From: Candidatus Omnitrophota bacterium
GTDB lineage: Bacteria; Omnitrophota; Gorgyraeia; Duberdicusellales; 4484-171
Direction of reading: 5' to 3'
NCBI GenBank assembly: GCA_014729775.1
Contig: WJJJ01000006.1
Location: forward strand, 16,694-80,693
Length of the DNA stretch: 64,000 bases
This document shows positions 1-63,288 of the stretch, piece after piece; positions within the stretch are counted from its first letter, which is position 1; each line of letters opens with the position of its first letter. Below the pieces are notes generated by a model. That model saw only the letters and a list, made by a program, of their open reading frames with translations, did no database searches and was not told where the DNA came from. Position numbers and translations under genes: made by a program.

Positions 1-894
1 CATCCTTTTTTCATTGTCTCTCTTTCCCTGCCGCCTTCGGAGCTTGACGTCAACGTACACCCCACCAAACGAGAGGTGAAACTGAAACACGAAACCGAAA
101 TAATCCGGATACTGCGCCGGGTCTGTGAAAACGCGCTCGTTTCCGACAGCAAAGCGAAACAGGCGGCGCAGCCGTTTACCCTGCGCGAACCCTCCGTTGA
201 AGGGCTCCGTGGGGAAGAAGCCGAAACTGCAGGCGTATCCCCCGATCCGGCCGCGAACACACCGCCGCGCCAGTATACTCTGGATACCGCAACCCCGTCT
301 TCCACTCCTGCCGCGCCTGCGCCCGGCAGGCTGAAAGATCTGCTCACGGCCGCTCGGTACATCGGACCGTTCCGCAAGAAATACCTACTGTTCGAAGCCG
401 ACCGTTCCCTTCTGATCATCGACCAGCATGCCGCGCAGGAACGGATCACTTATGAACAACTGCTCACCCAGGCATCCCGCGGCCGGGTCGAATCGCAACG
501 GCTTTTGGAACCGGTATTAGTTCGCGTTTCAGCGCAGGAAATACTTCTGTGGGAAATCCTGGAATCAAAACTGGAAAAACTCGGCTTCTCCACTACGAAA
601 TGGTCCCCGGACACGCTGGCAGTTCATGCTCATCCCGCGCTGATTACCGAAGCGGAAATCGCACTGCGGAATCTGCTGACCAAAGAAGAACGTACCGGAT
701 TCAATCTCGAAAACCTCGCTCGGCGGGCCTGTAAAGATTCTCTCACCGCCGGCTACCGGATGGACCCGGCCCAGGCAAAATTCATCATGCGCCAGCTTTG
801 CTCGTGTGCCGATCCTTTCGTCTGCCCGCACGGCCGTCCGACGGTAGCTGAAATACGGGAACATACTTTTGAGCGTGAATTTTTACGAAGGTAG
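1..894 (+). CDS. mutL: DNA mismatch repair protein MutL, C-terminal portion (5' end upstream of window)
   Basis: Frame 1 is open from base 1 (..LDVNVHPTKREVKLK..). Contains LLIIDQHAAQERITYE and FVCPHGRP motifs of the MutL C-terminal dimerisation domain. Confidence 0.85.
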   Translation, partial: HPFFIVSLSLPPSELDVNVHPTKREVKLKHETEIIRILRRVCENALVSDSKAKQAAQPFTLREPSVEGLRGEEAETAGVSPDPAANTPPRQYTLDTATPSSTPAAPAPGRLKDLLTAARYIGPFRKKYLLFEADRSLLIIDQHAAQERITYEQLLTQASRGRVESQRLLEPVLVRVSAQEILLWEILESKLEKLGFSTTKWSPDTLAVHAHPALITEAEIALRNLLTKEERTGFNLENLARRACKDSLTAGYRMDPAQAKFIMRQLCSCADPFVCPHGRPTVAEIREHTFEREFLRR

Positions 895-1003
895 GGAAAT
901 GAGTAAGAGGGGATCCCTGCAGAATCCTCTCTCCTTCCGTGGCTGGCCAGAATAACTCTCTCTTCCCAAGATGAACATGCGATAAACAAGGGTTTCGTGA
1001 AAT

Positions 1004-2576: not shown

Positions 2577-2788
2577 AACCTCCTTTTTTCATACCCGATC
2601 ACACACACAAACTCAAAATCCTCAAGAACCGCAAAACCTAAAATTCAACACCGAAAAATATTCCGAAAGTGACCATTTCTGCTACTTCTACGTTTTTGGC
2701 TCTGCCCTCTTACTTCTTATTTCTTACTACTTACTTCTTTCTTCCCCCTGAGGATCACGCATCCAGGATCCGGAACCTCCCCAAATGT

Positions 2789-3337
2789 TCATCCCACCCA
2801 AAAATTATTTTTCTTCGCCGTTTGCCGGTCAATCATCACATGCTTATCCGGCACCATGCGTAAACTTTCGTGAATCGCCTGATCGAAGGTATACAGCTCG
2901 ATATGCTTGGCATGATATTCCTTGATCTGTTTAATCACATCGACAAAATCCGAATCTCCGGTGATCAGCGCGGCCACATCGTAATGGTTCATCACGGCTT
3001 TGGAAAACATATCCACCGCAATCTTTACGTCCAGACCCTTCTGCATCCAGTCTTTATTCATGCGCACCAGGCGGCCGAGCTTTACCTCAAAATAAGGAAT
3101 ATGCACTTTCAGATTGTGCAGGTAATCCCTCTGTTCCTGAAACGTATGCGGGTTCTCCTCCTGACTGAATTCCGCCGAATAGTAATAACAGCGTATGAGG
3201 TGACGTCTTCGTGACACCCATTTGATGATATTTCCCCAGTGAATTTCCTTTCGGCGCACAAACCCGCGTTTGCCCTTAATTTCCTTCATTTTCTGCACGA
3301 CGTATTCCGCGTCGATAAAAATCATGATTCTTTTCAT
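2789..3337 (-). CDS. NYN-domain (LabA/DUF88-like, PIN-fold) protein
   Basis: IMIFIDAEYV ... ITGDSDFVDVIKQIKEYHAKHIELYTF is the NYN/LabA signature. Confidence 0.65.
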   Translation of the reverse strand: MKRIMIFIDAEYVVQKMKEIKGKRGFVRRKEIHWGNIIKWVSRRRHLIRCYYYSAEFSQEENPHTFQEQRDYLHNLKVHIPYFEVKLGRLVRMNKDWMQKGLDVKIAVDMFSKAVMNHYDVAALITGDSDFVDVIKQIKEYHAKHIELYTFDQAIHESLRMVPDKHVMIDRQTAKKNNFWVG

Positions 3338-15938: not shown

Positions 15939-16853
15939 TTACTCCACCCGTACCTTGAGCCGTTTTCCGCCCCAGTTCGTAATTCCGAAATTATCCGTAA
16001 AAAAAACGACCACCCTGTCCCAGTCTTCCTTGAATATCTTCATCGGGATGTTGTCATGCCCGATACCCGGCTCCACCTTTTTCACGTAAGGTTTATTCAT
16101 TTCATTAAACCACTTCTCCAGCTTCAGCAGAGTTTCGTAGGCGCTATCCTGATCACCGCACACCATTAATGTCCGCGGCAGACGACGCGCGTCCTCTTTA
16201 CGGAACCCCGGCGGCAGGAATCCGGCCACCATCGCGAACAGTTTCACCCGGGGATCCGCGGAGGCAACCTCAAGCCCGATCGTCCCGCCCAGAGAATACC
16301 CAACGATGCCTATTTTTTCTTTATCGGCGTTCGGGATCATTTGAGCGTAATCAACGACGCGAACGAACGTGTTTCCCCAATTGCTCCGCGCGCTTTGGAA
16401 ATAATGCACGTTGATCGCGATCACCCCTTCGTTCATCAAATCGGTCGCGAATCTTTTATACCGCTGGGCCCGGTCTCCTTGAATTCCGGCCGAACCGTGG
16501 ATCAGGATCACCACCGGACAAAGTGAGGTGCCGGGATTGTATACGTCGATCCGGACTTCATCATCTCCTACTTCTATCGTTTCCCGACTGAGCCCTTTCA
16601 CTGCTTTTGCCGCAGGGAATTCGGAAGAACCTATTTCTTCGATGTCATCCTTCCAGTAGGTAAGGATCGTCCCGTACCTTTTAACTTTGATGTATTCGTC
16701 GGTCTGTTCGATAATCGGCGCGCGGATCACCTCTCCGCGTTTCAAACGGATCACTTCCGCGAAACCCGGACCGATCCCCCCCCAAATCCCTGCCGAGAAT
16801 ACCGCCGCCGACACCCAGCACAATAAATGTTTTTTCATCGTTCTCCTCATCAC
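15939..16853 (-). CDS. secreted alpha/beta hydrolase (esterase/dienelactone-hydrolase-like) with the shared N-terminal module
   Basis: GYSLGG nucleophile elbow, a later His, and N-terminal module EVIRLKRGEVIRAPIIEQTDEYIKVKRYGTILTYWKDDIEEI. Confidence 0.65.
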   Translation of the reverse strand: MMRRTMKKHLLCWVSAAVFSAGIWGGIGPGFAEVIRLKRGEVIRAPIIEQTDEYIKVKRYGTILTYWKDDIEEIGSSEFPAAKAVKGLSRETIEVGDDEVRIDVYNPGTSLCPVVILIHGSAGIQGDRAQRYKRFATDLMNEGVIAINVHYFQSARSNWGNTFVRVVDYAQMIPNADKEKIGIVGYSLGGTIGLEVASADPRVKLFAMVAGFLPPGFRKEDARRLPRTLMVCGDQDSAYETLLKLEKWFNEMNKPYVKKVEPGIGHDNIPMKIFKEDWDRVVVFFTDNFGITNWGGKRLKVRVE

Positions 16854-31695: not shown

Positions 31696-31767
31696 TTGTA
31701 TATCCGGCAGCCTCTCTCGACAGCGGCCACGATGCCTGTTTCGTCCTTCGGCTGCGTGTGCGTGTCC

Positions 31768-31860
31768 GCATATCAGGACATCAGTATATCAGCAGGCAAC
31801 AGATCAATGTATCAGGTGATCAAGAATTATGCGCATGCATCCCGGCCTGCTGCTTCTCCG
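31768..31860. repeat. intergenic repeat element copy A (ATATCAG family)
   Basis: GCATATCAGGACATCAGTATATCAGCAGGC ... GCCTGCTG inverted partner; 27/29 identical to copy C. Confidence 0.55.
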
Positions 31861-31945
31861 ACACCCTGACTACTACTCCCCTCGTCTGCCGGCCCGCTCT
31901 CTCCGACCCTTCCCTTCCAGGCTTCTTACCTCTTCTTCCCGTCTC

Positions 31946-32311
31946 TCACGCCGCATAAATAAACACCACGCCCACCGCGCAGGTAACCAACGCGAACACG
32001 CGGATCAACGGATCCGGGCTGCGCTCTATTTTTCCCATTATCGGCTGCAGCCCCCCGGAACGGAGCAGGAGGATCAGGGCGCCTTTGAGTACCGCGATCA
32101 CCCCGAACAGCGTGATCACAAACGACAAGCGGCACTGGGAGGCGGCAAAAAGAAGAAAAATTCCGACGATGAAGGCGATCGGCGCCGACCACAGGATCCG
32201 ATTACCCCGCTGCCAGAACACCAGCCACCGCCGCAAAATCTGAGGCCGGATGAGGTAGGCAACTCCCTCGGCCATGAATACAATACCCAGGAGTTTGACG
32301 ATTTCGGACAT
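31946..32311 (-). CDS. small hypothetical membrane protein (3-4 TM)
   Basis: 121-aa hydrophobic ORF flanked by repeat elements. No recognisable motif. Confidence 0.4.
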   Translation of the reverse strand: MSEIVKLLGIVFMAEGVAYLIRPQILRRWLVFWQRGNRILWSAPIAFIVGIFLLFAASQCRLSFVITLFGVIAVLKGALILLLRSGGLQPIMGKIERSPDPLIRVFALVTCAVGVVFIYAA

Positions 32312-32363
32312 ATCTCCCCCTTTTTTTTAACCCTAAACGCTAAATCCTCCACAAAGAAAAGTA

Positions 32364-32466
32364 AATCAGGATATCAGTTTATCGGAAACCATGAAAGTGT
32401 ATGCCGCAATGCGGTTTATCTGATAAACTCCCCACCCATATCCTGTGATACTGATATACTGTATCT
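32364..32466. repeat. intergenic repeat element copy B
   Basis: AAATCAGGATATCAG.. left end, CCTGTGATACTGATATACTGTATCTC right end, and an internal GTTTATC-T-GATAAAC palindrome. Confidence 0.5.
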
Positions 32467-32527
32467 CTCCTTTACTTCTTGCCTCTTACCTCTTCCCCTC
32501 CGGAATCAAGGATCCCGGATCGAAGAA

Positions 32528-33028
32528 CTACGTCGAGAATGTTCCTGTATGCATTACCTCTTCCACGCTCCTTTTTTCGTGCGGATGGAAACCTTCTTTG
32601 GGATAACCGAGAGAGATCAGGCTCACCAGCTTATACCCGGAAGGTACCTCCATCAATTCCAGGATATGGTCGGCGTATTCTTTTTTATCGCCGGCGATCC
32701 AGCAGGACCCGATGCCCAGCGCCCGCGCAGCCAGCAGAAGCTGGGTCGTCGCGGCACTGCCGTCTTCAAGGTAATACTTGGTGATCTTGCTCACCACGAT
32801 GACGCATGCCGCGGCGCCAGCCAGGAACTTGCCGTTGGGGCAGATCTTCCCCAGTTCTTTCAAACGGCCCGCATCCGTGATTACGATAAACTCCCACGGC
32901 TGTTCGCCCCGCGCGGTCGGCGCCAGACGCGCCGCGTCGATCATCCTGTGAAATGCGGGCGTCTCGATCGGCTTATCTTCATACTCTCTCACGCTGCAGC
33001 GATTTTTCACGGTTTCAAAAAACTCCAT
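32528..33028 (-). CDS. nitroreductase family protein
   Basis: RCSVREYEDKPIE..APTARGEQPWEF motif and GIGSCW near the C-terminus. Confidence 0.75.
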   Translation of the reverse strand: MEFFETVKNRCSVREYEDKPIETPAFHRMIDAARLAPTARGEQPWEFIVITDAGRLKELGKICPNGKFLAGAAACVIVVSKITKYYLEDGSAATTQLLLAARALGIGSCWIAGDKKEYADHILELMEVPSGYKLVSLISLGYPKEGFHPHEKRSVEEVMHTGTFST

Positions 33029-34594: not shown

Positions 34595-34706
34595 CGGATC
34601 GTTATTCCTGGACCACTGCTCCCGGCCCGACCTTTTTCCGTGAAACCGGACGCGCCGGCGTTGGTCCCCTCTCTTCCGTCAAGGATCAAGAACCCCGGAT
34701 CCGGAA

Positions 34707-35609
34707 TTAGAATGCTCTGTCCGATATCCGTTCACCCGGCCAGGTGCTCACGCCAAAATTATCTGCGAACCACATCACGATGCTGCGCCAGTTATCCCAG
34801 AACATCGTCATGGGAATAGTGTGGCCGTAACCCTTATCTACTTCGTAGGTAAACGACTTTCCGTATTCTTCATACCAGGATTTCAGCCTGCGCAGGGTTT
34901 TTATGGAGTTGTCCTTGCTGCCGCTGCGGAAATACATCTTGGGCAGACGCGACGCGTGAAACTTGGTAAAACCCGGGGGGAAGTATCCGGCACTAATCGC
35001 GAGCAGTTTGATCCGCGGATCGCGAGAGGCCACCTGCAGGGCGACGGTCCCGCCGAGCGAGTATCCCACCATCCCGATTTTGTCTTCGTCCGCATTGGGA
35101 ATCGACTGGGCAAAATCGATCGCTTTGACGAATGTCCGCACCCACATCGGTTGGGAACTTTCAAAATAATGGACGTTGACCGCGATAATCCCCTGGTTCA
35201 TTAAGTCGTAACCGAAGCGGCGATAACGCGAGGCACGCTTGCCCGTGATTCCGGCCGACCCGTGGATCACCAGCACCACGGGAGAACCAGGACGGCCGGG
35301 GTTGTAGACATCTACCTTTACCCGCTTGTTGCCCAGAGTGAGATATTCGGTGGATTCTCCCATGGAAACCGCTTCGCCCTGATCGATCGCTTCCCCGTGC
35401 TCTCCGCTCCCGGCGCCTTCAATCGATTCAATATCCGATTTCCAGTAGGTCAGCGGCACCCCGGATATTTCAATCTTCACGTACTCCCCGGTCTGCTCGA
35501 CAATCTTCCCCCGCACTTCGTTCCCGTTCTTGAGCACGAGGGTTTCAGCACAGAGCGCGAACGGAAGAAAAAAAAGAAAAGATAAGCTGAGCGTGAATAC
35601 CTTCTTCAT
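34707..35609 (-). CDS. secreted alpha/beta hydrolase, paralog of 15939..16853, with the shared N-terminal module
   Basis: GYSLGG nucleophile elbow, collinear with 15939..16853 over its whole length; module ETLVLKNGNEVRGKIVEQTGEYVKIEISGVPLTYWKSDIESI. Confidence 0.65.
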   Translation of the reverse strand: MKKVFTLSLSFLFFLPFALCAETLVLKNGNEVRGKIVEQTGEYVKIEISGVPLTYWKSDIESIEGAGSGEHGEAIDQGEAVSMGESTEYLTLGNKRVKVDVYNPGRPGSPVVLVIHGSAGITGKRASRYRRFGYDLMNQGIIAVNVHYFESSQPMWVRTFVKAIDFAQSIPNADEDKIGMVGYSLGGTVALQVASRDPRIKLLAISAGYFPPGFTKFHASRLPKMYFRSGSKDNSIKTLRRLKSWYEEYGKSFTYEVDKGYGHTIPMTMFWDNWRSIVMWFADNFGVSTWPGERISDRAF

Positions 35610-35681
35610 CTTACAATTTCACCGCACATCCCGCACCCGGAATCAAGAATCCAGAATCGAAACGATCCTGCCGCCTCCCCC

Positions 35682-40395: not shown

Positions 40396-40486
40396 AACTG
40401 CCTGTCTGTGACGATCCCGGCCCCCTGATGCTTCATCCCTATTTTTGCGATCGGATATCCGGGATCCAGAATCTACACAAAAGTAA

Positions 40487-40744
40487 TTACCCGTATTTGA
40501 CCTTCATCGCCAGGATCACCAGTGCCAAAGCCAGGATGAACCCGTTGGCGGCGATCATCGGCGGTTCACGCAGTAAGATGCCGTACACCAGCCAGAAAAA
40601 CACCCCCAGAGCGAACATCGAAAAAGTCACGAATGAAAGATCTCTGGTATTTCGGGTCCGAAGAATGCGGATGACCTGCGGCAGGAATGATACCGCGCAG
40701 AGCGTTCCGGCAATGACTCCGACAAGAGTATGAATACTTTCCAT
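40487..40744 (-). CDS. SemiSWEET / PQ-loop sugar transporter
   Basis: 85 aa, three TM helices, PQ motif SFLPQVIRIL. Confidence 0.6.
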   Translation of the reverse strand: MESIHTLVGVIAGTLCAVSFLPQVIRILRTRNTRDLSFVTFSMFALGVFFWLVYGILLREPPMIAANGFILALALVILAMKVKYG

Positions 40745-43765: not shown

Positions 43766-43868
43766 TGTACACCTCAGTTACACACTCAATTACTATGGTA
43801 AAGACACCGACCTGTTACGTCAAGAGAAAAGGCAAAGGCCGGAAGGAGGGATAAGGGATAAGAAGTAA

Positions 43869-43918
43869 GGGGGTAAGAGAGAAGAGAAGAGAAGAGAAGA
43901 GAAGAGAAGAGAAGAGAA
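43869..43918. repeat. (GAGAA)10 pentanucleotide microsatellite, preceded by degenerate purine-rich copies from ~43830
   Basis: Ten perfect tandem GAGAA units read directly from the sequence, 104-153 bp upstream of the 43765 start codon. Confidence 0.9.
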
Positions 43919-44083
43919 AAAACAGTGTGGAGACGGAAAGCAGAGGATCAACGACAGGCAAAAGAGAGCAACAGGACCTCTTTCCTCTGCGCAACAACGC
44001 AGCTATGCAAAATCGAGGATCAATTCGGACGGCACGACTTCCTTTATGCGCACCGGACGCCGCGATACGGGCAGGGAAATTCG

Positions 44084-44608: not shown

Positions 44609-44697
44609 GCTCCCTCCTTGTATACTCGGATCCTTCTAAGAAAAACATTTTTCTGTTGGTCCTCCAGAATCGGAGACCGAGGATCCTGCGTCCTGGA

Positions 44698-45078
44698 TTA
44701 CGCTCTTCCCTCCAGAATCTTTCCGACCGTCATCAATAACTCCTGGCTCGTCACCGGTTTCGCGAGAGAACGCACCTCACCGGTGAGATTCTTTAAAAAC
44801 TCTTCGTCTTCTTTGGTCAAAATCCCGGTAAGAAACAACGTCGGAATCATATTGGTTTGTTCATCTTCGGAAAGCAGCCGCTTGATATCTTCTCCGCGCA
44901 TACCGGGCATAATCACGTCCAGGATGATCAAATCCGGCTGGTGCTTTTTCGCGAGCGTAAACGCTTCTTTCCCTTCTGTCGTGGAAACGACCTCATAATC
45001 CGCCCGCTGAAGCATTTGCGTGATTACACGAACCACCTCTTCCTCATCATCCACAAGCAAAATCTTCTTATTCTCCAC
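44698..45078 (-). CDS. single-domain response regulator (CheY-like receiver)
   Basis: KILLVDDEEEV..DLIILDVIMPGM..K motifs. GTG start at 45078 is preceded by AAGGAGG; the longer ORF reaches 45147. Confidence 0.7.
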   Translation of the reverse strand: MENKKILLVDDEEEVVRVITQMLQRADYEVVSTTEGKEAFTLAKKHQPDLIILDVIMPGMRGEDIKRLLSEDEQTNMIPTLFLTGILTKEDEEFLKNLTGEVRSLAKPVTSQELLMTVGKILEGRA

Positions 45079-45240
45079 TCCCCCTCCTTGATTACGTACT
45101 TCTTCCCTTGTTATTGTACTCCATTTTCTCAAGAAAGACAATAGCATCCTGCGGAGGATCTGAATCGCGCGTATCAGGTGACCGGGACGAAGAGAGCGAG
45201 TTCCTTTATGAAGAGCTGATCTCGCGGCTACACCGAAATC

Positions 45241-45375
45241 GCATATCAGGACATCAGAATATCAGCGGGAAGTAGACTAAGGCATCAGACTATCGAGAAT
45301 AATAAGCGTGTATTCTGCTCTGTTTCTTTTCTGCCCCCCCCCGCTCACTGATATCTTATACTGATATACTCTATC
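45241..45375. repeat. intergenic repeat element copy C (most complete)
   Basis: Left arm GCATATCAGGACATCAGAATATCAGCGGG. Right arm CCCGCTCACTGATATCTTATACTGATATACTCTATC. The arm termini are reverse complements of each other. Confidence 0.6.
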
Positions 45376-45395
45376 GGCCTCTCACCTCTTCTCCC

Positions 45396-47054
45396 TCATG
45401 CTCCCATTTCCGCTTTCACGTCTTCTTCGGCAGTAGCGGCCGGACGGATATTGAATTTTTCCCGGAGGACTTTGAGCACGTTGGACGAAACAAATGCCGG
45501 AAGTGAAGGCCCCAGAACAATATTCCGCACATCCAGTGAAAACAAGGTCAGCAGAATACATACCGCTTTCTGTTCGTACCAGGAAATGATGAACGAAAGC
45601 GGCAAATCATTCACGCCGCACCCCAGTGCTTCCGCGAGACCCGAAGCGATCTTGATCGCTGAATAGGAGTCGTTACACTGACCGCAGTCAAGCAAACGGG
45701 GTATCCCGCCGATCGTTCCTAAGTCCAAACGGTTAATCCTGAACTTCCCGCAGGCCAACGTCAATATCACGCAGTCTTCGGGAACCTTCTCGGCAAATTC
45801 GGTATAATAGTTGCGGCCCGGTTTGGCGCCGTCACAACCGCCGATCAAAAAAAATCTTTTGATTTTTTTCTGCTTCACCAGATCGAGTACTTTATCGGCG
45901 ACGCCAAGCACCGCATGATGACCGAAGCCTACGGTAATCGTCTTCTCGATCCGGTCATCCTTAAATCCGCCGAGAGAAAACGCTTTTTCGATGACCGGTG
46001 AAAAGTCTTTTTTTTCGTTTCCTCCGGGAATATGCGCAATTCCGGGCCAGGCGACCAAGCCGGTGGTAAAAATTCGGTCAATGTAAGAGGATTTCGGCTC
46101 CTGGATACAATTGGTCGTCATCAGGATAACCGCGGGGATTCCGTCGAACTCCTTCTGCTGATTCTGCCAGGCCGACCCAAAATGGCCGGCAAAATGAGGA
46201 TATTTTTTCAACTCAGGGTACCCGTGCGCAGGAAGCATCTCTCCGTGGGTATAGATATTGATTCCCTTCCCTTCGGTCTGCTCCAGAAGCTGTGCAAGAT
46301 CCAGCAGATCATGCCCGGAAACAATAATTGCCGGCCCTTTTTTCACTCCGAGAGCTACTTCCGTGGGTTCGGGATGGCCGAAGCGCCCGGTATGCGCAGC
46401 ATCAAGAAGTTCAAGGCATTTTAAGTTCACGCTGCCGAACTCAAAAATCAGCTTCACCAAATCATCGGCATTCAGCGAATCGTCAACTAATGCCGCCAAA
46501 CCGCGGGAAAAGAACCGATTAACCTCGATGTCTTCCTTCCCCAGCAGTAATGCGTGATGCGCGTAGGCCGCCATTCCTTTGAGACCGTAGAGCAAAATCT
46601 CCCGCAGACTGCGAATATCCTCGTCCAATTCCGGATCACTCATAATCCCTACTTCATCAGCCCGCGAAAGCATCTGCTCACGGGTCTGCCCAGGCTCCCA
46701 TAACACTGCGCTGGGAATCCCGGCAATCCATTTCTCATCCCCCCTTTCTTCCACCCTGGCTTTGAGCATATCCCTCAAAGTTCTGGCCCGTATGATATCC
46801 GCCTCCAGCCGGGCCTCGTCAAAATTCACGTTGGTTACGGTAGTAAACAGCCCTTCCGCCAGAAATCTCGCGACCTCGGCTTCTTCCATGCCAATCTTCC
46901 GCGCTTCCGATTCGTACCAGGCGATCTGCTTCAGCAGATGAACCAATACGTCCTGCAGATCTGCGACCGGAGCTGTCTTTCCGCATACTCCTTTTTGTAA
47001 ATGACACCCTTGACCCTTCATCGTCTGCTCACATTGGCGGCAAAACATTTCCAT
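45396..47054 (-). CDS. hcp: hydroxylamine reductase / hybrid-cluster protein
   Basis: MFCRQCEQT N-terminal cubane-cluster motif, 552 aa, hybrid-cluster Cys/His/Glu ligand pattern. Confidence 0.9.
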   Translation of the reverse strand: MEMFCRQCEQTMKGQGCHLQKGVCGKTAPVADLQDVLVHLLKQIAWYESEARKIGMEEAEVARFLAEGLFTTVTNVNFDEARLEADIIRARTLRDMLKARVEERGDEKWIAGIPSAVLWEPGQTREQMLSRADEVGIMSDPELDEDIRSLREILLYGLKGMAAYAHHALLLGKEDIEVNRFFSRGLAALVDDSLNADDLVKLIFEFGSVNLKCLELLDAAHTGRFGHPEPTEVALGVKKGPAIIVSGHDLLDLAQLLEQTEGKGINIYTHGEMLPAHGYPELKKYPHFAGHFGSAWQNQQKEFDGIPAVILMTTNCIQEPKSSYIDRIFTTGLVAWPGIAHIPGGNEKKDFSPVIEKAFSLGGFKDDRIEKTITVGFGHHAVLGVADKVLDLVKQKKIKRFFLIGGCDGAKPGRNYYTEFAEKVPEDCVILTLACGKFRINRLDLGTIGGIPRLLDCGQCNDSYSAIKIASGLAEALGCGVNDLPLSFIISWYEQKAVCILLTLFSLDVRNIVLGPSLPAFVSSNVLKVLREKFNIRPAATAEEDVKAEMGA

Positions 47055-47120: not shown

Positions 47121-47534
47121 TCAGGCGGCACCCTTCCCGGATAAAGAAGCAACGGTGATTCCGTCCAGTTTTTTCCTTAGGTCCTGCTGGATCTCCTTCA
47201 TCTTCCGGTGAAGAGGACATGTCGAAGAATTCACGCAGGTCTTTGGGTTTTTTAAACACTCCATCAGGGTAAGCGGTCCCTGAAAGATACGGATCACTTC
47301 TTGCAGCTGAATCGTATCCGGCAGGCGAGCAAGTCTAAACCCACCCTGTTTACCTTTTTGAGAACGCAATACTCCGGCAGCACTGAGCCTCTGGAGAATG
47401 CGACGCAGGAACGGTTGAGGGATATCAAGCTCCCTGCTCAGCTGAGCCACAGTGACAATCCTTTCCGGATAAAGACTGAGATATGAAAGCGCCCGTATCG
47501 CGTAATCAGTATCTTTGGTAATCAGCTTCATCAT
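47121..47534 (-). CDS. Rrf2-family transcriptional regulator (NsrR/IscR-like)
   Basis: N-terminal wHTH (DYAIRALSYLS...VTVAQLSRELDIPQPFLRRILQRL). Three C-terminal Cys for a cluster. Immediately upstream of hcp. Confidence 0.8.
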   Translation of the reverse strand: MMKLITKDTDYAIRALSYLSLYPERIVTVAQLSRELDIPQPFLRRILQRLSAAGVLRSQKGKQGGFRLARLPDTIQLQEVIRIFQGPLTLMECLKNPKTCVNSSTCPLHRKMKEIQQDLRKKLDGITVASLSGKGAA

Positions 47535-47548
47535 TCACCTCCACATAT

Positions 47549-47569
47549 ATGATACTATTTTAGTATCAT
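47549..47569. promoter_or_regulatory. perfect 9-3-9 palindrome ATGATACTA-TTT-TAGTATCAT, candidate Rrf2 operator
   Basis: Read directly from the sequence; it lies 15-35 bp upstream of the rrf2 start codon, adjacent to the RBS GGAGGTG. Confidence 0.4.
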
Positions 47570-47640
47570 TTGTCAAGAAGGATCTCCTTTCCCGCGCTCC
47601 CGGACACGCCCCCCGTAAACGCCCCCTGTGAACTTCACCC

Positions 47641-47664
47641 CTGTTAACTTCAGAAGTTAACCAG
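47641..47664. promoter_or_regulatory. palindrome GTTAACTTC-A-GAAGTTAAC plus flanking CCTGTkAACTTCA and AAyGGGAGG direct repeats (47625..47751)
   Basis: Read directly from the sequence. Confidence 0.35.
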
Positions 47665-47983
47665 AGGTAATAAAATCAACGGTTTTTCACCGGTCGTGTC
47701 AACCTACGAAGTTAACGGGAGGAAGTTAATGGGAGGTACGCGAACGGGAGGTGAACAGGAAGAGACCAGATTGGTCGTTTCTTGACATCTTGGGTTACAG
47801 AACGGGAACAGGAAATGAGTGATCTGGCAGAGGATTGAAAAAGAGGGGAATATTCCGGATGTGTATGTTGAGCTAATGATTCGGATAGAGCTTGGGACCT
47901 TTCTTTTCTTCCGGCTTCTCTGCTTCTTTGCCGCTTGCCTCCTTACTCCTCTTCTCTTTTACCCTTCCCCAACCTACGCGGAT

Positions 47984-48072
47984 GAATCAGATTCGCATAT
48001 CAAAATATCAGTAGGAAGCGTGTCAAGCTCTCCGGCTATCAGAAACTGTTTCCACAGAGTTCTGATACCTCC
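47984..48072. repeat. intergenic repeat element copy E
   Basis: GCATATCAAAATATCAGTAGG left end and TATCAGAAACTG..CAGAGTTCTGATACCTCC right end. Confidence 0.45.
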
Positions 48073-48148
48073 TTCTCTTTTGCTTCTTACTTCTTCAGTC
48101 TCTCCTTCCCTCCAGGCTCAAGGATCGTGGATCCAGCGCATCCCGCCT

Positions 48149-48874
48149 CTACGCCACCCCTTCGCATCCAAACCGCCGCCGGATACTTTCCAGCCGCCCG
48201 AAACAAATCACCTTATCCTGCTCGCGGAGGAGGGTTAAAGCGGACAGGTCGGTCATGGTTCTTCCGCCCCGCTCGATCGCCAGCACATTGATCCCGTCAC
48301 GGCGCAGATCGGCCTCCGCCAGGGACTTGCCGGCGATTCCACTCTCCGCGCAGACCTCGATCTGTGATACGCCGTAGCCACCTGTGGCGACAAGCAGTTC
48401 TTCGAAGGTGACGGGAGAAATGATCTTTTTCTTCACGATCTTCGTTCTTAAATACTCGGTCACGCGGGAGGTAAATTTCGCGTGGGTGAACAGCCGGTAA
48501 AAAAGCAACCCCGCGCATATGATAACTACTAAATTCATCACCGGCAGCAGCCATGCCGGAAAAACCAGGTGCAGGAACGGGATCTGTATCTTTTCCGCAA
48601 GGCTCACCGGACGCAGGGAATTGGCGAACGTCGCCACCAGCGTAACCAGTCCCGCGTGTCCCAGCACGATCAGGACACTGGCGATGCGGCGCCGCTGAGG
48701 ATTGCCGGTGATCAGTTCAGCTTCCTTGGTAGTAAAACCGGTACCGGTGAAACAGGACAATGCCTGGAACTTCGCCAGCGACCATTCCAGACCCGTCAAC
48801 TCAAACGCGACCGCGCCGATGCGCACGATTACGAAGGCCACGGTAATGGCCAGAAGGAATAGGAACAGATTCAT
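48149..48874 (-). CDS. membrane protein with C-terminal TrkA-C (RCK_C)-like domain, putative ion channel/transporter
   Basis: N-terminal TM helices plus a pore-like segment (CFTGTGFTT); the C-terminal soluble domain (VCAESGIAGKSLAEADL..GINVLAIERGG) resembles TrkA-C. Confidence 0.45.
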   Translation of the reverse strand: MNLFLFLLAITVAFVIVRIGAVAFELTGLEWSLAKFQALSCFTGTGFTTKEAELITGNPQRRRIASVLIVLGHAGLVTLVATFANSLRPVSLAEKIQIPFLHLVFPAWLLPVMNLVVIICAGLLFYRLFTHAKFTSRVTEYLRTKIVKKKIISPVTFEELLVATGGYGVSQIEVCAESGIAGKSLAEADLRRDGINVLAIERGGRTMTDLSALTLLREQDKVICFGRLESIRRRFGCEGVA

Positions 48875-52489: not shown

Positions 52490-52717
52490 GCCTCCTTTGA
52501 TAATCCTTACTTAATGAGATTTATTGCTCATGGATCTGCGATCCTGGTCATTCAATAGAAAATAACATGAAGCGAAGATCCCGTATCCAAGTTCTCTTCT
52601 CTATCCAGCATTCAGGCTCCAAGATAAAGGATCCGGAATCATATTCCTCATTATAAGCACACCCAGACCCGGATGCAACAGAAGAATACCGCCTCCGCAC
52701 ACTTACAATTATCCGTG

Positions 52718-56471: not shown

Positions 56472-56687
56472 CGCAACCCCCCCTCCTTGTACCCCAGTTC
56501 GACCTGCAAATATTCTCTATTCACCGATAGTATACACTTGCTTCCCACCGGTGCAACATGATTTTCTCCGGCGCGCCTCTTGCGGATTCTGCCCAACGGC
56601 CACGAAACAACGACCATGAGCGGTTTCTTCACATTTTTAGTTTTTTCGCTATGCTTCTCTGAAATCAAGGATCGAAGATCAACCGTC

Positions 56688-56930
56688 TCAAGAACCGATC
56701 CCGACCGCCTGATCGATCGCCGGCTTGTCAAAACCGACAATAATATTCCCCTCCACATCGAGTACAGGAACTCCCATTTGTCCCGACTTCTCCTGCATCT
56801 CTTTGATCTTCTCGGCGTCGCCTGCGACGTTGACCTCTTCGTACTCGACCTGGTGTTCTTCCAGATACTGTTTTGTTTTTTGACAATAAGGACACGTCGG
56901 CGTGCTGTAAATGGTTACTTTCACCATCAA
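56688..56930 (-). CDS. glutaredoxin-like protein (NrdH/Grx fold)
   Basis: 80 aa with CPYC active site and GVPVL motif. Confidence 0.7.
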   Translation of the reverse strand: MMVKVTIYSTPTCPYCQKTKQYLEEHQVEYEEVNVAGDAEKIKEMQEKSGQMGVPVLDVEGNIIVGFDKPAIDQAVGIGS

Positions 56931-60410: not shown

Positions 60411-60536
60411 CTTATATCAGCACATAGGGATATCGGTCAAAAGCGGATAAGAGCATCAGATATTATGAGAATGCATTCTGATATGCTGCTCCTCTGAGAA
60501 CCTGCCCGCTGATCTCCTGGTCTGCTGATATACCCT
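60411..60536. repeat. intergenic repeat element copy D
   Basis: CTTATATCAGCACATAGGGATATCGG / GAGCATCAGATAT.. left end and CCCGCTGATCTCCTGGTCTGCTGATATACCCTC right end, similar to copy C. Confidence 0.5.
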
Positions 60537-60579
60537 CTTTTTCTATTTCTCTCTTCCCGTCCAGCATCCAGGATCTCCC

Positions 60580-63288
60580 CTACATTACCTTCAGCTTCTT
60601 CAATACCTGCGCCGCGGCAAGGGGAACCAGACTCGTTCCGAAGGCCAGCGCCCATTCCCCCCCCGTTAAAGGTACAGTCTTCAGCACCCGGGCCAAAAAG
60701 GGCACGTAGAGCGACAGGGATAAGAGTATGATCCCCAGCAGGAGCGCGGCCCAGACAAACCTGTTTCGGGTCACTTCATTCCTGAAAATTCGCGAATGTC
60801 GGTCCCGGACGTTAAACACGTGCCACAGAGAAGCCAGTCCCAGAGAAAAATAGGCGACGGTAACAGCCCGCGCGGGATCGGCCTTCATCACGAAAAGGAC
60901 ATAGGTAAAACAGCCGAATACCGCCAGTCCCATCAGCACCCCGTACACGAATACCGCGGCCCAGTGCGCGCGAGTCAGCACCTGCTCATCCGGACTGCGG
61001 GGGGGATGTTCCATCACGCGGGGATCTCCTTCCCCCATTCCCAAGGCGAGCGCGGGAAACACGTCGGTCACCAGGTTAAGAAAAAGGATCTGCAAAGGAA
61101 GCAGAGGCAGGGGAAGCCGCAAAACCGAAGCAATTCCTACGGCGGCAATCTCGCTCACATGACAGGGAAGCAGATACACGATAAACTTCCGTATATTCCC
61201 GAAAATAACCCTTCCCTGGGCGACCGCGCGCACGATCGTGGGGAATGAATCATCCTGCAACACGATATCGGCGGCTTCACGAGCTACCTGAGTTCCTCTT
61301 TGTCCCATTGCAATACCAATATCAGCCTTCTTTAACGCCGGCGCATCATTCACTCCATCGCCGGTCATTGCGACTACGTGGCGTTTTTTTTGATACATCT
61401 CAATAAGATCCAGTTTCTGTCCCGGCGTTACCCGCGCGAATATAGGAACATCCAGAATTTCGTTGAGTTCCGACTCGCTCATGTCATCGGGAGATTTCAG
61501 ATCTTTCCCTTCCACCGCGCGTAACGTCCGGTCCTGATCCAACCCTAAATCAGCCGCCACGGCTTCAGCGGTATCCGCCTGATCACCGGTTACCATTACC
61601 GTACGGATTCCCGCACGCGCGCATTCGGCCAGCGATGAGCGGATTTCCCCGCGGGGCGGGTCAAAAAATCCCACCAATCCCAAAAATACAAGATCCGCAT
61701 AGGGCTCTTCGGCCAACTGATGAACTCGTTTTTCGGCGCAGGCGAGCATTCGCAATCCTTTCTTGGCGTAGTCGCGGGAAATACGGCCCCACCGTTCTTT
61801 TGCCTCGGCGGAAAACGAACTCTCTTTTGATTCGGTACGGTACCTGCCGCAGGCTGCAATAACCTCCTCCGGCGCGCCTTTCACCAAGACCAAAAAAGGC
61901 GCGTCTTGTCCGTTATAGGTAGCCATCATTTTACGCTCGGAATCAAACGCCTCTTCGCGCTGTTCCGGGAAGCGGCGCTTCAACGCGTCCTTCCCTATGC
62001 CGGCAAGCTCACCGGCCTGGAGCAACGCGACCTCCAGGGGATCACCGACCGTCTTCTCGGGATCAGTACGGGAAAAAGACGCGTTGTTACATAACACCCC
62101 GCAGCGTATAAGATCGTTTACCCGGGGACGGTCTTTGACTTCAATCCGCGAAGACTGCTCGAAGAATCCTTCTCCCTCTTCCCCTGTAAAACGCGTTCGC
62201 ACCGGCTCGGCTCCGGACGGATGCAGGACACTTACTTCCATTCTGTTTTCGGTAAGCGTCCCCGTTTTATCCGTACAAATAATATCGGTTGAACCGAGTG
62301 TTTCGACTGCCGCGAGTTTTTCCACGATCGCGTTCTCCCGGGCCATACGCCACATGCCGCGCGCCAGCGCGATCGTCGCAACGACCGGAAGACCTTCGGG
62401 GATTGCCGCAATGGCGAGCACGATCGCCGTTTCGATCATAAGATAGGCCTCTTTTCCGGCCAGGATCCCGCTTACCGCCAACAGGGCCGCGACCGCTCCG
62501 GTCACCCATAACAGAACGTGTCCCAGCCGGTTGAGTTTCTTCTCGAGCGGCGTCTTTTCTTCCCCCGCCTCTTCGGCCAGCGATGAGATATTCCCCAGTT
62601 CTGTTTCCATCCCGGTCGCGGTCACCACGGCCTCGCCGGATCCGCGTAGAAGAGTGGTCCCTTTCCAAAGCATACTTCTGCGGTCGTGCAGAGGAGCATC
62701 CTCGGCGCACGGTTTTTCCTGTTTGGACACGGGCATGGATTCGCCGGTCAACGCTGATTCATTGGCCTGGAGCTTGGATGCCTCCAGGATACGCAGATCG
62801 GCCGATACGATATCCCCTTCATTCAAGAGCACGATATCTCCGGGAACGAGATCCTCGGCATCAATCTGCCTTGCTTCCCCGTTCCGCCGGACCACGGTTT
62901 TTACCCGGCTCAGTTTCTGGAGAGCTTCCATCGACCGGGAGGCTTTCAGCTCGGTAAAAAATCCGACAGCCGCATTGAGAAAGAGGGCGACCGCGATCGC
63001 CGCGGCCTGCACCCAGCCTTCAAAGAAAAACGAGATCACCGCGGCGGCAAGAAGCAGAATGATGATCACACTCTTGAATTGATTGATCAGAATAGCCCAA
63101 GCGCTCTTTTTCTTTTCGGTCCGGATACGGTTGGGACCCCACTGGCCGCGGCGGCGGGGGACTTCCTGCTCACTTACCCCTTTCCGGGCATCGATTCCCA
63201 GTTCATCCAGGACATCTCCGGATGGAGATGCCCAGGGAGCGGACAGTTTATCCTGCGGAGGGAATGTGGTATGTTGTTTTTTTTCCAT
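60580..63288 (-). CDS. P-type cation-transporting ATPase (type IIA/IIB, Ca2+-like)
   Basis: DKTGTLT phosphorylation site, TGES, TGDGVNDAPALKKADIGIAMG, ten TM helices, 902 aa. Confidence 0.9.
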   Translation of the reverse strand: MEKKQHTTFPPQDKLSAPWASPSGDVLDELGIDARKGVSEQEVPRRRGQWGPNRIRTEKKKSAWAILINQFKSVIIILLLAAAVISFFFEGWVQAAAIAVALFLNAAVGFFTELKASRSMEALQKLSRVKTVVRRNGEARQIDAEDLVPGDIVLLNEGDIVSADLRILEASKLQANESALTGESMPVSKQEKPCAEDAPLHDRRSMLWKGTTLLRGSGEAVVTATGMETELGNISSLAEEAGEEKTPLEKKLNRLGHVLLWVTGAVAALLAVSGILAGKEAYLMIETAIVLAIAAIPEGLPVVATIALARGMWRMARENAIVEKLAAVETLGSTDIICTDKTGTLTENRMEVSVLHPSGAEPVRTRFTGEEGEGFFEQSSRIEVKDRPRVNDLIRCGVLCNNASFSRTDPEKTVGDPLEVALLQAGELAGIGKDALKRRFPEQREEAFDSERKMMATYNGQDAPFLVLVKGAPEEVIAACGRYRTESKESSFSAEAKERWGRISRDYAKKGLRMLACAEKRVHQLAEEPYADLVFLGLVGFFDPPRGEIRSSLAECARAGIRTVMVTGDQADTAEAVAADLGLDQDRTLRAVEGKDLKSPDDMSESELNEILDVPIFARVTPGQKLDLIEMYQKKRHVVAMTGDGVNDAPALKKADIGIAMGQRGTQVAREAADIVLQDDSFPTIVRAVAQGRVIFGNIRKFIVYLLPCHVSEIAAVGIASVLRLPLPLLPLQILFLNLVTDVFPALALGMGEGDPRVMEHPPRSPDEQVLTRAHWAAVFVYGVLMGLAVFGCFTYVLFVMKADPARAVTVAYFSLGLASLWHVFNVRDRHSRIFRNEVTRNRFVWAALLLGIILLSLSLYVPFLARVLKTVPLTGGEWALAFGTSLVPLAAAQVLKKLKVM

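Follow-up and report, generated by a model that had tools for sequence, protein, structure and literature searches.

Stop-proximal arrays of a degenerate GATYC heptamer in a 64-kb window of an Omnitrophota genome

Results

The window and its heptamer arrays

We examined a 64-kb stretch of DNA from a Candidatus Omnitrophota bacterium (contig WJJJ01000006.1, positions 16,694–80,693; hereafter the window, meaning all 64,000 nucleotides (nt) of it), in which short tandem arrays of a degenerate heptamer, GATYCnn, lie between genes and mostly just behind stop codons. Pfam scans of roughly 60 open reading frames (ORFs), together with a codon-usage model, placed every gene on the minus strand except the 3' end of mutL (76–894, plus strand), and the element was read throughout in the minus (sense) strand. 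The GC skew is negative along the whole plus strand (cumulative −3.95), and the sense strand of the genes is purine-rich.

Ten intergenic regions contain two to five phased heptamers on the minus strand (consensus GATYCYK), the number of units per array clustering at three to four, and a purine block of consensus GGAGGGGAAGAG usually lies 3' of the heptamers. An earlier sequence-only reading had described a recurrent composite motif flanking minus-strand stop codons at their low-coordinate side. Ten instances of it were confirmed, with extents of 2750–2777, 32501–32526, 34680–34710, 35638–35669, 40449–40474, 44661–44690, 48113–48138, 52606–52644, 56656–56700 and 60553–60580. A further proposed instance at 910–928 consists of two irregularly spaced units that score below the threshold of our position weight matrix (PWM) and is not an array; the one proposed at 60561–60580 does contain an array, but with only two good units (60561–60575). 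The arrays, and the block that follows the one on which the earlier reading was centered, are listed here.

2750–2777, minus strand: array F, GTTCCGG GATCCTG GATGCGT GATCCTC; first PWM-scored unit 18 nt past the TGA of an NYN-domain gene (2789–3337)
32501–32527, minus strand: array B, GATCCGG GATCCTT GATTCCG; 6 nt past the TAG of a nitroreductase gene (32528–33028)
34681–34706, minus strand: array n3 (the earlier reading's own instance), AATTCCG GATCCGG GGTTCTT GATCCTT; 5 nt past the TAA of an alpha/beta-hydrolase-like gene (34707–35609)
34663–34680, minus strand: block after array n3, GACGGAAGAGAGGGGA
35638–35669, minus strand: array n4, GATCGTTTC GATTCTG GATTCTT GATTCCG; 23 nt past the TGA of the MTHFR gene
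40446–40473, minus strand: array n5, GATTCTG GATCCCG GATATCC GATCGCA; 13 nt past the TAA of a PQ-loop/SemiSWEET gene (40487–40744)
44665–44685, minus strand: array n6, GATCCTC GGTCTCC GATTCTG, then GAGGACC; 12 nt past the TAA of a response-regulator gene (44698–45147)
48113–48133, minus strand: array D, GATCCAC GATCCTT GAGCCTG; 15 nt past the TAG of a TrkA_C gene (48149–48874)
52606–52640, minus strand: array n8, GATTCCG GATCCTT TATCTTG GAGCCTG AATGCTG; 77 nt past the ptsI stop
56660–56687, minus strand: array n9, GATCTTC GATCCTT GATTTCA; 7 nt past the stop of a glutaredoxin gene (56688–56930)
60561–60575, minus strand: array E (short), GATCCTG GATGCTG, just two good units; 4 nt past the TAG of a P-type ATPase gene (60580–63288)

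Read downward in the sense direction, array B runs TAG-ttcttc-GATCCGG-GATCCTT-GATTCCG-GAGGGGAAGAGG from 32528, array n3 TAA-ttccg-GATCCGG-GGTTCTT-GATCCTT-GACGGAAGAGAGG from 34707, array n4 GATTCTG-GATTCTT-GATTCCG from 35658, and array D GATCCAC-GATCCTT-GAGCCTG-GAGGGAAGGAGAG from 48133. At array n6 a further GATTCTGGAGGGAAGAG lies inside the end of the response-regulator ORF (44703–44719). The final codons of this ORF, GATTCTGGAGGGAAGAGCG-TAA, amount to a single heptamer and the purine block, so that the repeat seems either to run on into the end of the ORF or to have provided it.

Within the window, a search for GATYCNNGATYCNNGATYC with at most one mismatch gave 5 matches against 0.23 expected, all five of them on the minus strand and all five intergenic. 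A three-unit PWM gave 11 matches on the minus strand and 0 on the plus strand, compared with 0.45 in shuffles. Because these instances had themselves served to train the PWM, its only independent evidence is the asymmetry of strand and location. Just two PWM matches, both weak, fell in coding sequence. An nhmmer profile built from the ten copies returned those ten alone.

Outside the window, homologues are distant. The nearest other homologue of the P-type ATPase is 56% identical among 5.8 billion proteins, and the relatives of citrate synthase are all ≤69% identical in a scan with one genome per species; there are thus no close relatives for synteny, and the within-window statistics carry most of the weight. 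Our comparison set of about 1.9 Mb comprised 80 citrate-synthase loci from other genomes (1.25 Mb) and 120 metagenome loci (0.65 Mb). The latter were obtained with the octamer probe CTGATRTNCTGATRTNCTGATRT, which yielded at least 120 loci, and blastn at 1e-5 detected no homology between them and the window. The nhmmer profile found no match in the 80 genome loci and one marginal match (E = 0.019) in the metagenome loci. The proposal of a lineage-specific 3'-end architecture stood up in this respect, the arrays being stop-proximal, specific to the sense strand and absent from the 80 genome loci.

The ten copies align essentially without gaps and have 9- to 12-mers in common, GATCCTTGA occurring in four, GATCCTGGATGC in two and GATTCTGGA in several. 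We concluded from the ungapped alignment and these common words that the copies are homologous and form subfamilies, rather than being independent products of slippage. The units are degenerate; Tandem Repeats Finder (TRF) at a score of ≥30 reported just one of the ten arrays (35640–35658).

Placement behind stop codons

Nine of the ten arrays begin 4–23 nt 3' of a stop codon. Seven of the nine upstream genes have a Pfam match at gathering level and two have sub-threshold matches only; they comprise NYN-domain, nitroreductase, probable alpha/beta hydrolase, MTHFR, SemiSWEET, response regulator, TrkA_C-domain, glutaredoxin and P-type ATPase genes, among which we found no functional theme. Arrays occur in about 10 of roughly 19 co-directional spacers of ≥70 nt. 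Spacers that carry arrays measure between 72 and 614 nt, and at all of these lengths it is the stop to which the array is anchored (Fisher combined p = 4e-4 for non-uniform placement within spacers). The shortest of these spacers, 72 nt, is that of array n4, where the next start codon follows 28 nt further on.

The earlier claim that every instance abuts a stop thus holds for nine arrays and fails for array n8 (52620–52640 in that claim), which lies 77 nt after ptsI and just 3' of a promoter-like TTGCAT-17-TATAAT (~52677–52649) that was seen by eye, is not listed by the promoter scan and agrees with the −35 consensus at only 3/6 positions.

The Pfam matches of the alpha/beta-hydrolase-like gene upstream of array n3 are mostly below gathering score. 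This gene (34707–35609) has a paralogue of the same dienelactone-hydrolase-like kind at 15939–16853, ~19 kb away, and the two are 70% identical across a 155-nt repeat (16393–16547 and 35158–35312).

Conserved cores of the heptamer

When nine copies of three units were compared, positions G1, A2, T3 and C5 agreed with the column consensus in 91% of cells and positions 4, 6 and 7 in 62% (Fisher p = 2e-6), a contrast that carries ascertainment bias because the instances and their register were picked by GAT. The conserved part is G-A-T-n-C at a strict 7-nt spacing, and not GATC. Such a contrast is not expected from uniform neutral decay of a founder sequence, whereas it is expected for phased recognition cores separated by free spacers.

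The tetranucleotide GATC is present in 15/34 units; GATTC occurs in 8, and GATGC, GAGCC and GGTTC occur as well, substituting freely. These figures bear on the suggestion that the arrays are a Dam-type methylation cluster or another GATC/GGATCC feature of a restriction-modification system acting on the DNA. GATC is abundant in the window (508 in 64 kb, 2.1x the base-composition expectation) and GGATCC occurs in several arrays. However, GATC stands at 1.08x and GGATCC at 1.07x of their maximal-order Markov expectations, and both are accordingly neither enriched nor avoided, which argues against selection in either direction; this check of restriction-site avoidance covered the whole window. The GGATCC count is 42, not ~14 as first reported, with ~10–11 of them intergenic and 7 at ≤25 nt past a stop. 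Strict strand asymmetry is also unexpected for a palindromic DNA site, and no methylase was evident among the window ORFs in the Pfam scans. We rejected a methylation or restriction function and consider it extremely unlikely.

Purine blocks and the larger modular repeat

Each array is the 5' part of a larger, modular intergenic repeat. The order of modules is stop codon, GATYC heptamers (optional), a purine block of approximately GGAGGGGAAGAG that is sometimes joined by (GAAGTAA)n, and ATATCAG/CTGATAT octamer arms; the modular elements align with each other. The parts other than the arrays are as follows.

895–912, plus strand: purine block after mutL, GGAAATGAGTAAGAGGGG, directly past the TAG; mutL is the sole plus-strand gene of the window
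2693–2749, minus strand: purine tract after array F, GGGGGAAGAAAG then (GAAGTAA)n; TRF period 7, 5.3 copies
31767–31866, minus strand: 100-nt dispersed repeat, copy 1, 72% identical to 45240–45339, ending in the period-8 array CTGATATNCTGATGTCCTGATATGCG
31889–31945, minus strand: element A, purine block GAGACGGGAAGAAGAGGTAAGAAG... directly on the stop of a small gene (31946–32311, sub-threshold DUF2065), with no GATYC array
32350–32456, minus strand: imperfect ATATCAG/CTGATAT hairpin of element B (z of the full intergenic region, −2.2)
32457–32500, minus strand: purine block after array B, GGAGGGGAAGAGGTAAGAGGCAAGAAGTAAAGGAGAG
43819–43947, plus strand: purine tract of opposite orientation, 129 nt, between two minus-strand genes
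45240–45339, minus strand: 100-nt dispersed repeat, copy 2, with CTGATRTN octamers
45367–45395, minus strand: element C, purine block GGGAGAAGAGGTGAGAGG directly on the hcp stop, with no GATYC array
48059–48119, minus strand: purine tract after array D, 61 nt
60525–60560, minus strand: purine tract after array E

In element A the purine block is followed by the repeat that it has in common with element C. The copy at 31767–31866 pairs, as 3' arm, with a 5' arm that contains ATATCAG, making an imperfect long hairpin. Hairpins of this kind, with a 5' ATATCAG arm and a 3' arm of period-8 CTGATRTN repeats (7 matches to the latter against 0.02 expected), occur in five spacers. The folds of whole elements are weak, with z of +0.6 to −1.2 for 4/6 and element B alone approaching significance; in the octamer part, sense folds are on average ~5 kcal/mol more stable than antisense folds.

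The purine blocks had been described as 30–60 nt CT-only tracts of the plus strand. Tracts of about that length were found at 4/10 instances (45–61 nt, ≥83% sense purine), with T from GTAAG units scattered through them; at the remaining six the purine-rich block is just 10–20 nt long. Stop-adjacent purine blocks lie on the sense strand in 7/7 cases, six behind minus-strand genes and one on the plus strand behind mutL, and because of the latter we conclude that the purine block follows gene orientation. The tract at 43819–43947 is the single exception to the sense-strand rule. It contains an (AGAGA)8.2 microsatellite (43878–43918, 100% matches in TRF) that is antisense to the flanking genes. 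Autocorrelation of the intergenic sequence peaks at lags 7–8 and 14–15, and the peak at lag 7–8 persists when the arrays are masked.

Two other observations concern the surroundings of these modules. A promoter-like TTGACG-17-TACCAT (43823–43795) adjoins the (AGAGA)8.2 tract, with the microsatellite upstream of it. The region at 47535–47800, upstream of an Rrf2-family regulator gene (47121–47534) and of hcp (45396–47054), contains direct repeats of CCTCCCGTTAACTTC and the inverted copies GAAGTTAACAGGGG and GAAGTTCACAGGGGG, and a near-consensus promoter, TTGACA-16-TATCAT (47576–47549), overlaps the palindrome GATACTAAAATAGTATC; it looks like an NsrR/Rrf2-type operator region.

Folding and signal tests

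The sequence-only reading had proposed a GGAUCC-containing hairpin followed by a polypurine run, acting as a surrogate terminator. Stems of 4–9 bp between GGAUC and GAUCC are possible in most arrays, canonical intrinsic terminators are indeed rare behind the stop codons of the window, as had been claimed, and array n4 was flagged as terminator-like by the scan. On the other side, the fold z-scores of the arrays range from −3.0 to +0.8 (mean −0.7, pooled z about −2.2), array B being the only one to fold better than its shuffles (z −2.9 to −3.0; −12.6 kcal/mol). The register of the stem is not conserved, and we rejected the small-hairpin model. The 80 nt of RNA past the ten stops are G/A-rich (C/G = 0.50) and the flank is purine-rich rather than a U-run, so that the arrays do not have the form of an intrinsic terminator; G/A-rich RNA forms a strong RNA:DNA hybrid, contrary to a U-tract. 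Array n4, the sole flagged array, sits 28 nt before the next start, and array n8 lies downstream of the promoter-like site. Termination by a small GGAUCC stem plus a purine run is therefore very unlikely.

The same composition speaks against Rho on the sense strand, a G-rich sequence with C/G = 0.50 being unlike a rut site, and this candidate was rejected. On the opposite strand the elements read as C-rich, G-poor CUCUUCCCCUCC... followed by (nnGRAUC)n, which might load Rho against antisense or convergent transcripts and so insulate the gene. The antisense C/G is 2.0 over the 80 nt past the stops, and the elements lie at gene 3' boundaries. This argument is purely compositional, however, as the sense strand of all genes of the window is purine- and G-rich anyway; no plus-strand promoters or genes lie nearby, and the phased GAT.C cores would be left unexplained. 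We regard an antisense insulator as highly improbable.

Several other candidates were also tried. We sought a complement of the GATYC arrays downstream in the window and found none (pooled z −1.9), so the foldback-partner model was rejected and the proposed hairpin has no 3' partner. A regular expression for G-quadruplexes (G4) matched 3 sites in the window, 0 of them in arrays or purine blocks, and G4 formation was rejected. The recurrent CTTGA was rejected as part of a sigma-70 promoter, there being by eye no −10 at 16–18 nt in arrays B, n3, D and n9; promoter scans list none of the arrays. Extended Shine-Dalgarno pairing with the end of the 16S rRNA tail (GGAUCACCUCCUUA) was rejected by inspection, as the order of GAUCC and GGAGG is reversed relative to an extended Shine-Dalgarno sequence. 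A three-frame stop function was rejected because TGA arises only with T at position 7 (24%), and small ORFs behind the GGAGG blocks were rejected for want of start codons. Rfam yielded no match, whether at gathering score or with E relaxed to 1.

Comparable arrays in other genomes

Among the 80 citrate-synthase loci, TRF revealed that metagenome-assembled genomes (MAGs) of Omnitrophota, Victivallales and unclassified members of the Planctomycetota-Verrucomicrobiota-Chlamydiota (PVC) group have their own degenerate period-7 arrays in spacers, several of those in Omnitrophota lying near gene ends. Often an array is paired with its inverse to make a hairpin. One such set stands on either side of a 5S rRNA gene, and a second lies behind a tRNA-like sequence. 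A Planctomycetota (Sedimentisphaerales-like) contig retrieved with the octamer probe carries a perfect 200-nt hairpin 3 nt past a stop (−101 kcal/mol, z −10.8). In the 19 kb around it, GGTAATT/ATTGATT period-7 arrays lie 0–5 nt past stops at four spacers, some with an inverse arm and some solo. Coordinates within the numbered comparison loci (L) are given below.

L003 265–395; L017 633–709 and 4179–4215; L028 7818–7919; L033 7291–7451; L046 11879–11971; L058 2063–2100: period-7 arrays in PVC MAGs
L089 2655–2872, the same DNA as L201 8816–9029: Planctomycetota 200-nt hairpin, outer arms of GTAATTG/CAATTAC heptamers, inner arms of TATCAGG/CCTGATA octamers
L201 5847–5869, 11264–11296 and 14947–14978; L202 12340–12365: further Planctomycetota stop-abutting heptamer arrays
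L201 16369–16497 and 17848–17976; L202 1641–1750 (a different locus in a related genome): second array-hairpin family

The second array-hairpin family pairs (GTGCCTAAA)n with (ACTTTAGGCAC)n. Two spacers of one Planctomycetota contig each carry a 129-nt copy of it, and these two are near-identical, with a single mismatch. Most loci found with the octamer probe are unrelated (GCTGATGT)n arrays. Tandem repeats of this octamer abound in unrelated metagenome contigs (L082–L125; at least 120 matches), and the inverse array (AGCACATC)n often comes next, giving hairpins (for example in L088, L107 and L110).

The Planctomycetota comparison included an 89%-identical relative. Its syntenic spacer is just 20 nt long and has no hairpin, while it has an (ATTGATT)3.7 array of its own immediately behind a different stop codon. 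Judged from these comparisons, stop-abutment appears to be a property of the class, with genome-specific units and single insertions that turn over quickly.

The Planctomycetota hairpin suggests a further origin for the window arrays, namely as decayed 5' arms of array hairpins that once started at the stop and served as mRNA stabilizers or terminators in the manner of repetitive extragenic palindromic (REP) sequences. The L089 hairpin stands right behind its stop, the window has the same order of heptamers, ATATCAG arms and CTGATAT arms, and the greater average stability of the sense folds in the octamer part is in keeping with such an origin. However, the downstream complement of the arrays was not found, whole-element folds are no better than shuffles, that of element B alone approaching significance, and four arrays lie in spacers of 72–112 nt with no room for a partner. 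We judge this origin improbable.

Discussion

To our knowledge, intergenic heptamer repeats have been on record for 35 years, from cyanobacteria, xanthomonads, Beggiatoaceae and other groups, and no function has been assigned to them. The heptamer of Nostoc/Anabaena, GGGGA[C/T]T, is one that we take to be equivalent to STRR1, of the short tandemly repeated repetitive (STRR) sequences. We found no literature on such repeats in Omnitrophota or Planctomycetes. Our data indicate that the window arrays very probably belong with these repeats, as a lineage-specific dispersed intergenic repeat of ~40 nt in the class of genome-specific intergenic heptameric repeats (STRR, GGGAATC, GGGGAYT, TAACTGA). 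Like the STRR, GGGAATC and TAACTGA repeats, the arrays have head-to-tail 7-nt units and an intergenic bias (10/10); their placement, as in the Xanthomonas and Nostoc repeats, is tied to the stop (9/10).

The closest likeness is to the Xanthomonas GGGAATC and Nostoc GGGGA(C/T)T repeats, which are 89–93% intergenic, usually have four units, lie mostly 0–50 nt past a stop on the coding strand and sometimes overlap it, and are transcribed, unlinked to gene function or to mobile elements, and of no known function (Rehm et al. 2015, PMC4692102). The overlap with stop codons seen in Xanthomonas (PMC4692102) can be likened to the response-regulator ORF end in the window. Both sets have tandem 7-nt units, an intergenic bias, about four units and a position 0–50 nt past the stop, and GATTCCC, the complementary-strand form of the Xanthomonas unit, resembles the window unit GATTCCG. 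There are clear differences as well. The Xanthomonas and Nostoc units have G-runs and fold into G-quadruplexes, whereas the window arrays lack a G4 motif, are much more degenerate, have the C-containing strand as sense, and are coupled in fixed order to a purine block and octamer arms.

A second relative is the TAACTGA direct repeat of marine Beggiatoaceae, cyanobacteria and Bacteroidetes, which is found just upstream of start codons and was proposed as a site for a post-transcriptional regulator such as S1, Csp or CsrA (MacGregor 2015, PMC4679880). It too is a genome-specific heptamer, in 2–6 copies, that occurs at many intergenic loci with no theme among the flanking genes; however, its copies are perfect, lie a few nt upstream of starts and replace the Shine-Dalgarno region, while the window arrays lie behind stops. 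TAACTGA carries a stop triplet in each unit, as do GGTAATT and ATTGATT, so that stops arise in every frame over three units. More generally, as relayed in PMC4679880 and PMC4692102, heptamers dominate long simple sequence repeats, for which polymerase slippage was proposed (Mrazek et al. 2007). As described there, the STRR and long simple sequence repeats resemble the window arrays in their heptamer class and lineage-scattered distribution, but they are near-perfect runs longer than expected, whereas the window arrays are short, imperfect and homologous between loci.

Functional analogies can be drawn with two further systems. REP sequences and bacterial interspersed mosaic elements (BIMEs) are short extragenic repeats found in 3' untranslated regions (3'UTRs) or intercistronic spacers near stops, at roughly one per several kb, and have been proposed to modulate mRNA stability and translation of the upstream gene. 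They have the stop-near extragenic placement of the window arrays. REPs are imperfect palindromes with stable stem-loops and are tied to REP-associated tyrosine transposases (RAYTs), whereas a stable stem-loop is not evident in the window (mean z −0.7); we found no RAYT (IS200-like) transposase among the window ORFs in the Pfam scans. The HutP site consists of UAG-N4 with a period of 7, three times over, and TRAP likewise has a multi-site RNA target. The arrays resemble these systems in having at least three short conserved cores, set at a fixed distance and separated by free spacers; the window core GAUnC differs from theirs and there is no overlapping terminator or antiterminator. We intend this as an analogy of working, and claim no membership in either family.

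Following this analogy, we suggest how the arrays might act. Each array would be part of the upstream gene's transcript, as its 3'UTR or as an intercistronic spacer, and its GAUnC cores at 7-nt phase could then form a single-stranded, multi-site platform for a putative oligomeric RNA-binding factor. Binding of this factor might influence 3'-end processing, stability or polarity between neighboring cistrons, and its action would require no stable hairpin, U-tract or Rho site and no GATC methylation. The arrays themselves may have arisen by slippage and spread by dispersal of a common ancestor sequence. Of the options in the sequence-only reading, an RNA-binding-protein site is viable and fits the phased-core pattern best. 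Such a mechanism, taken alone, is doubtful on our analysis; joined with the identity as a dispersed heptamer repeat, it is the best explanation that we can offer, and we hold the combination tentatively, with somewhat less than even confidence.

The main rival is a neutral or selfish simple-sequence repeat, generated by slippage that favors heptamers and spread by dispersal or gene conversion, which persists only where it is harmless, between a stop and the next promoter or ribosome-binding site. Intergenic DNA of the window is generally built of repeats of period 5, 7 and 8, including a perfect (AGAGA)8, the arrays are degenerate and vary in unit number, the modules are optional (elements A and C lack an array), the Planctomycetota element is missing from the same spacer of its 89%-identical relative, and the published heptamer families have no function assigned to them (PMC4692102, PMC4679880). 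The position-specific conservation of the core, the presence of one unit family at about half of the sizeable co-directional spacers, and the recurrence of stop-abutting placement in the Planctomycetota genome and in the published Xanthomonas and Nostoc families are points on the other side. We think that a neutral or selfish origin is possible, if unlikely.

Several further observations weigh against the RNA-platform interpretation, in addition to the ascertainment bias in the core comparison. Gene orientation and replication direction are confounded, as all array-bearing genes have one orientation; given the one-strand layout and the uniform skew, the two are inseparable for the arrays. The proximity to stops could be trivial, either because a composite element with the array at its 5' end was inserted in a formerly short spacer or because insertions are tolerated only in the promoter-free zone behind a stop. 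Array n8 probably lies in the 5'UTR of citrate synthase. Pfam scans of the window yielded no candidate for a HutP/TRAP-like oligomeric RNA-binding protein. Lastly, presence and absence in the Planctomycetota pair, with a bare 20-nt syntenic spacer in the relative, imply rapid gain and loss, as for dispensable repeats.

The window adds an uncultured PVC lineage to the organisms with heptamer repeats of this class, here in about half of the sizeable co-directional spacers. For annotation in this lineage, the repeat can help to recognize true stop codons and operon spacers, and it should not be read as a GATC methylation cluster or a terminator. Its recurrence across phyla would reflect either a common mutational or tolerance process behind stops or a general, unrecognized marking of gene 3' ends. 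As a long shot, stop-abutting heptamer arrays may be a functional class across PVC bacteria and beyond, with genome-specific units acting as phased RNA operators for a ring-shaped or oligomeric protein that sets 3'-end formation, processing or polarity where intrinsic terminators are largely lacking. If this were true, the GATYC array and its purine block would be this Omnitrophota lineage's version of an unrecognized factor-dependent 3'-end signal.

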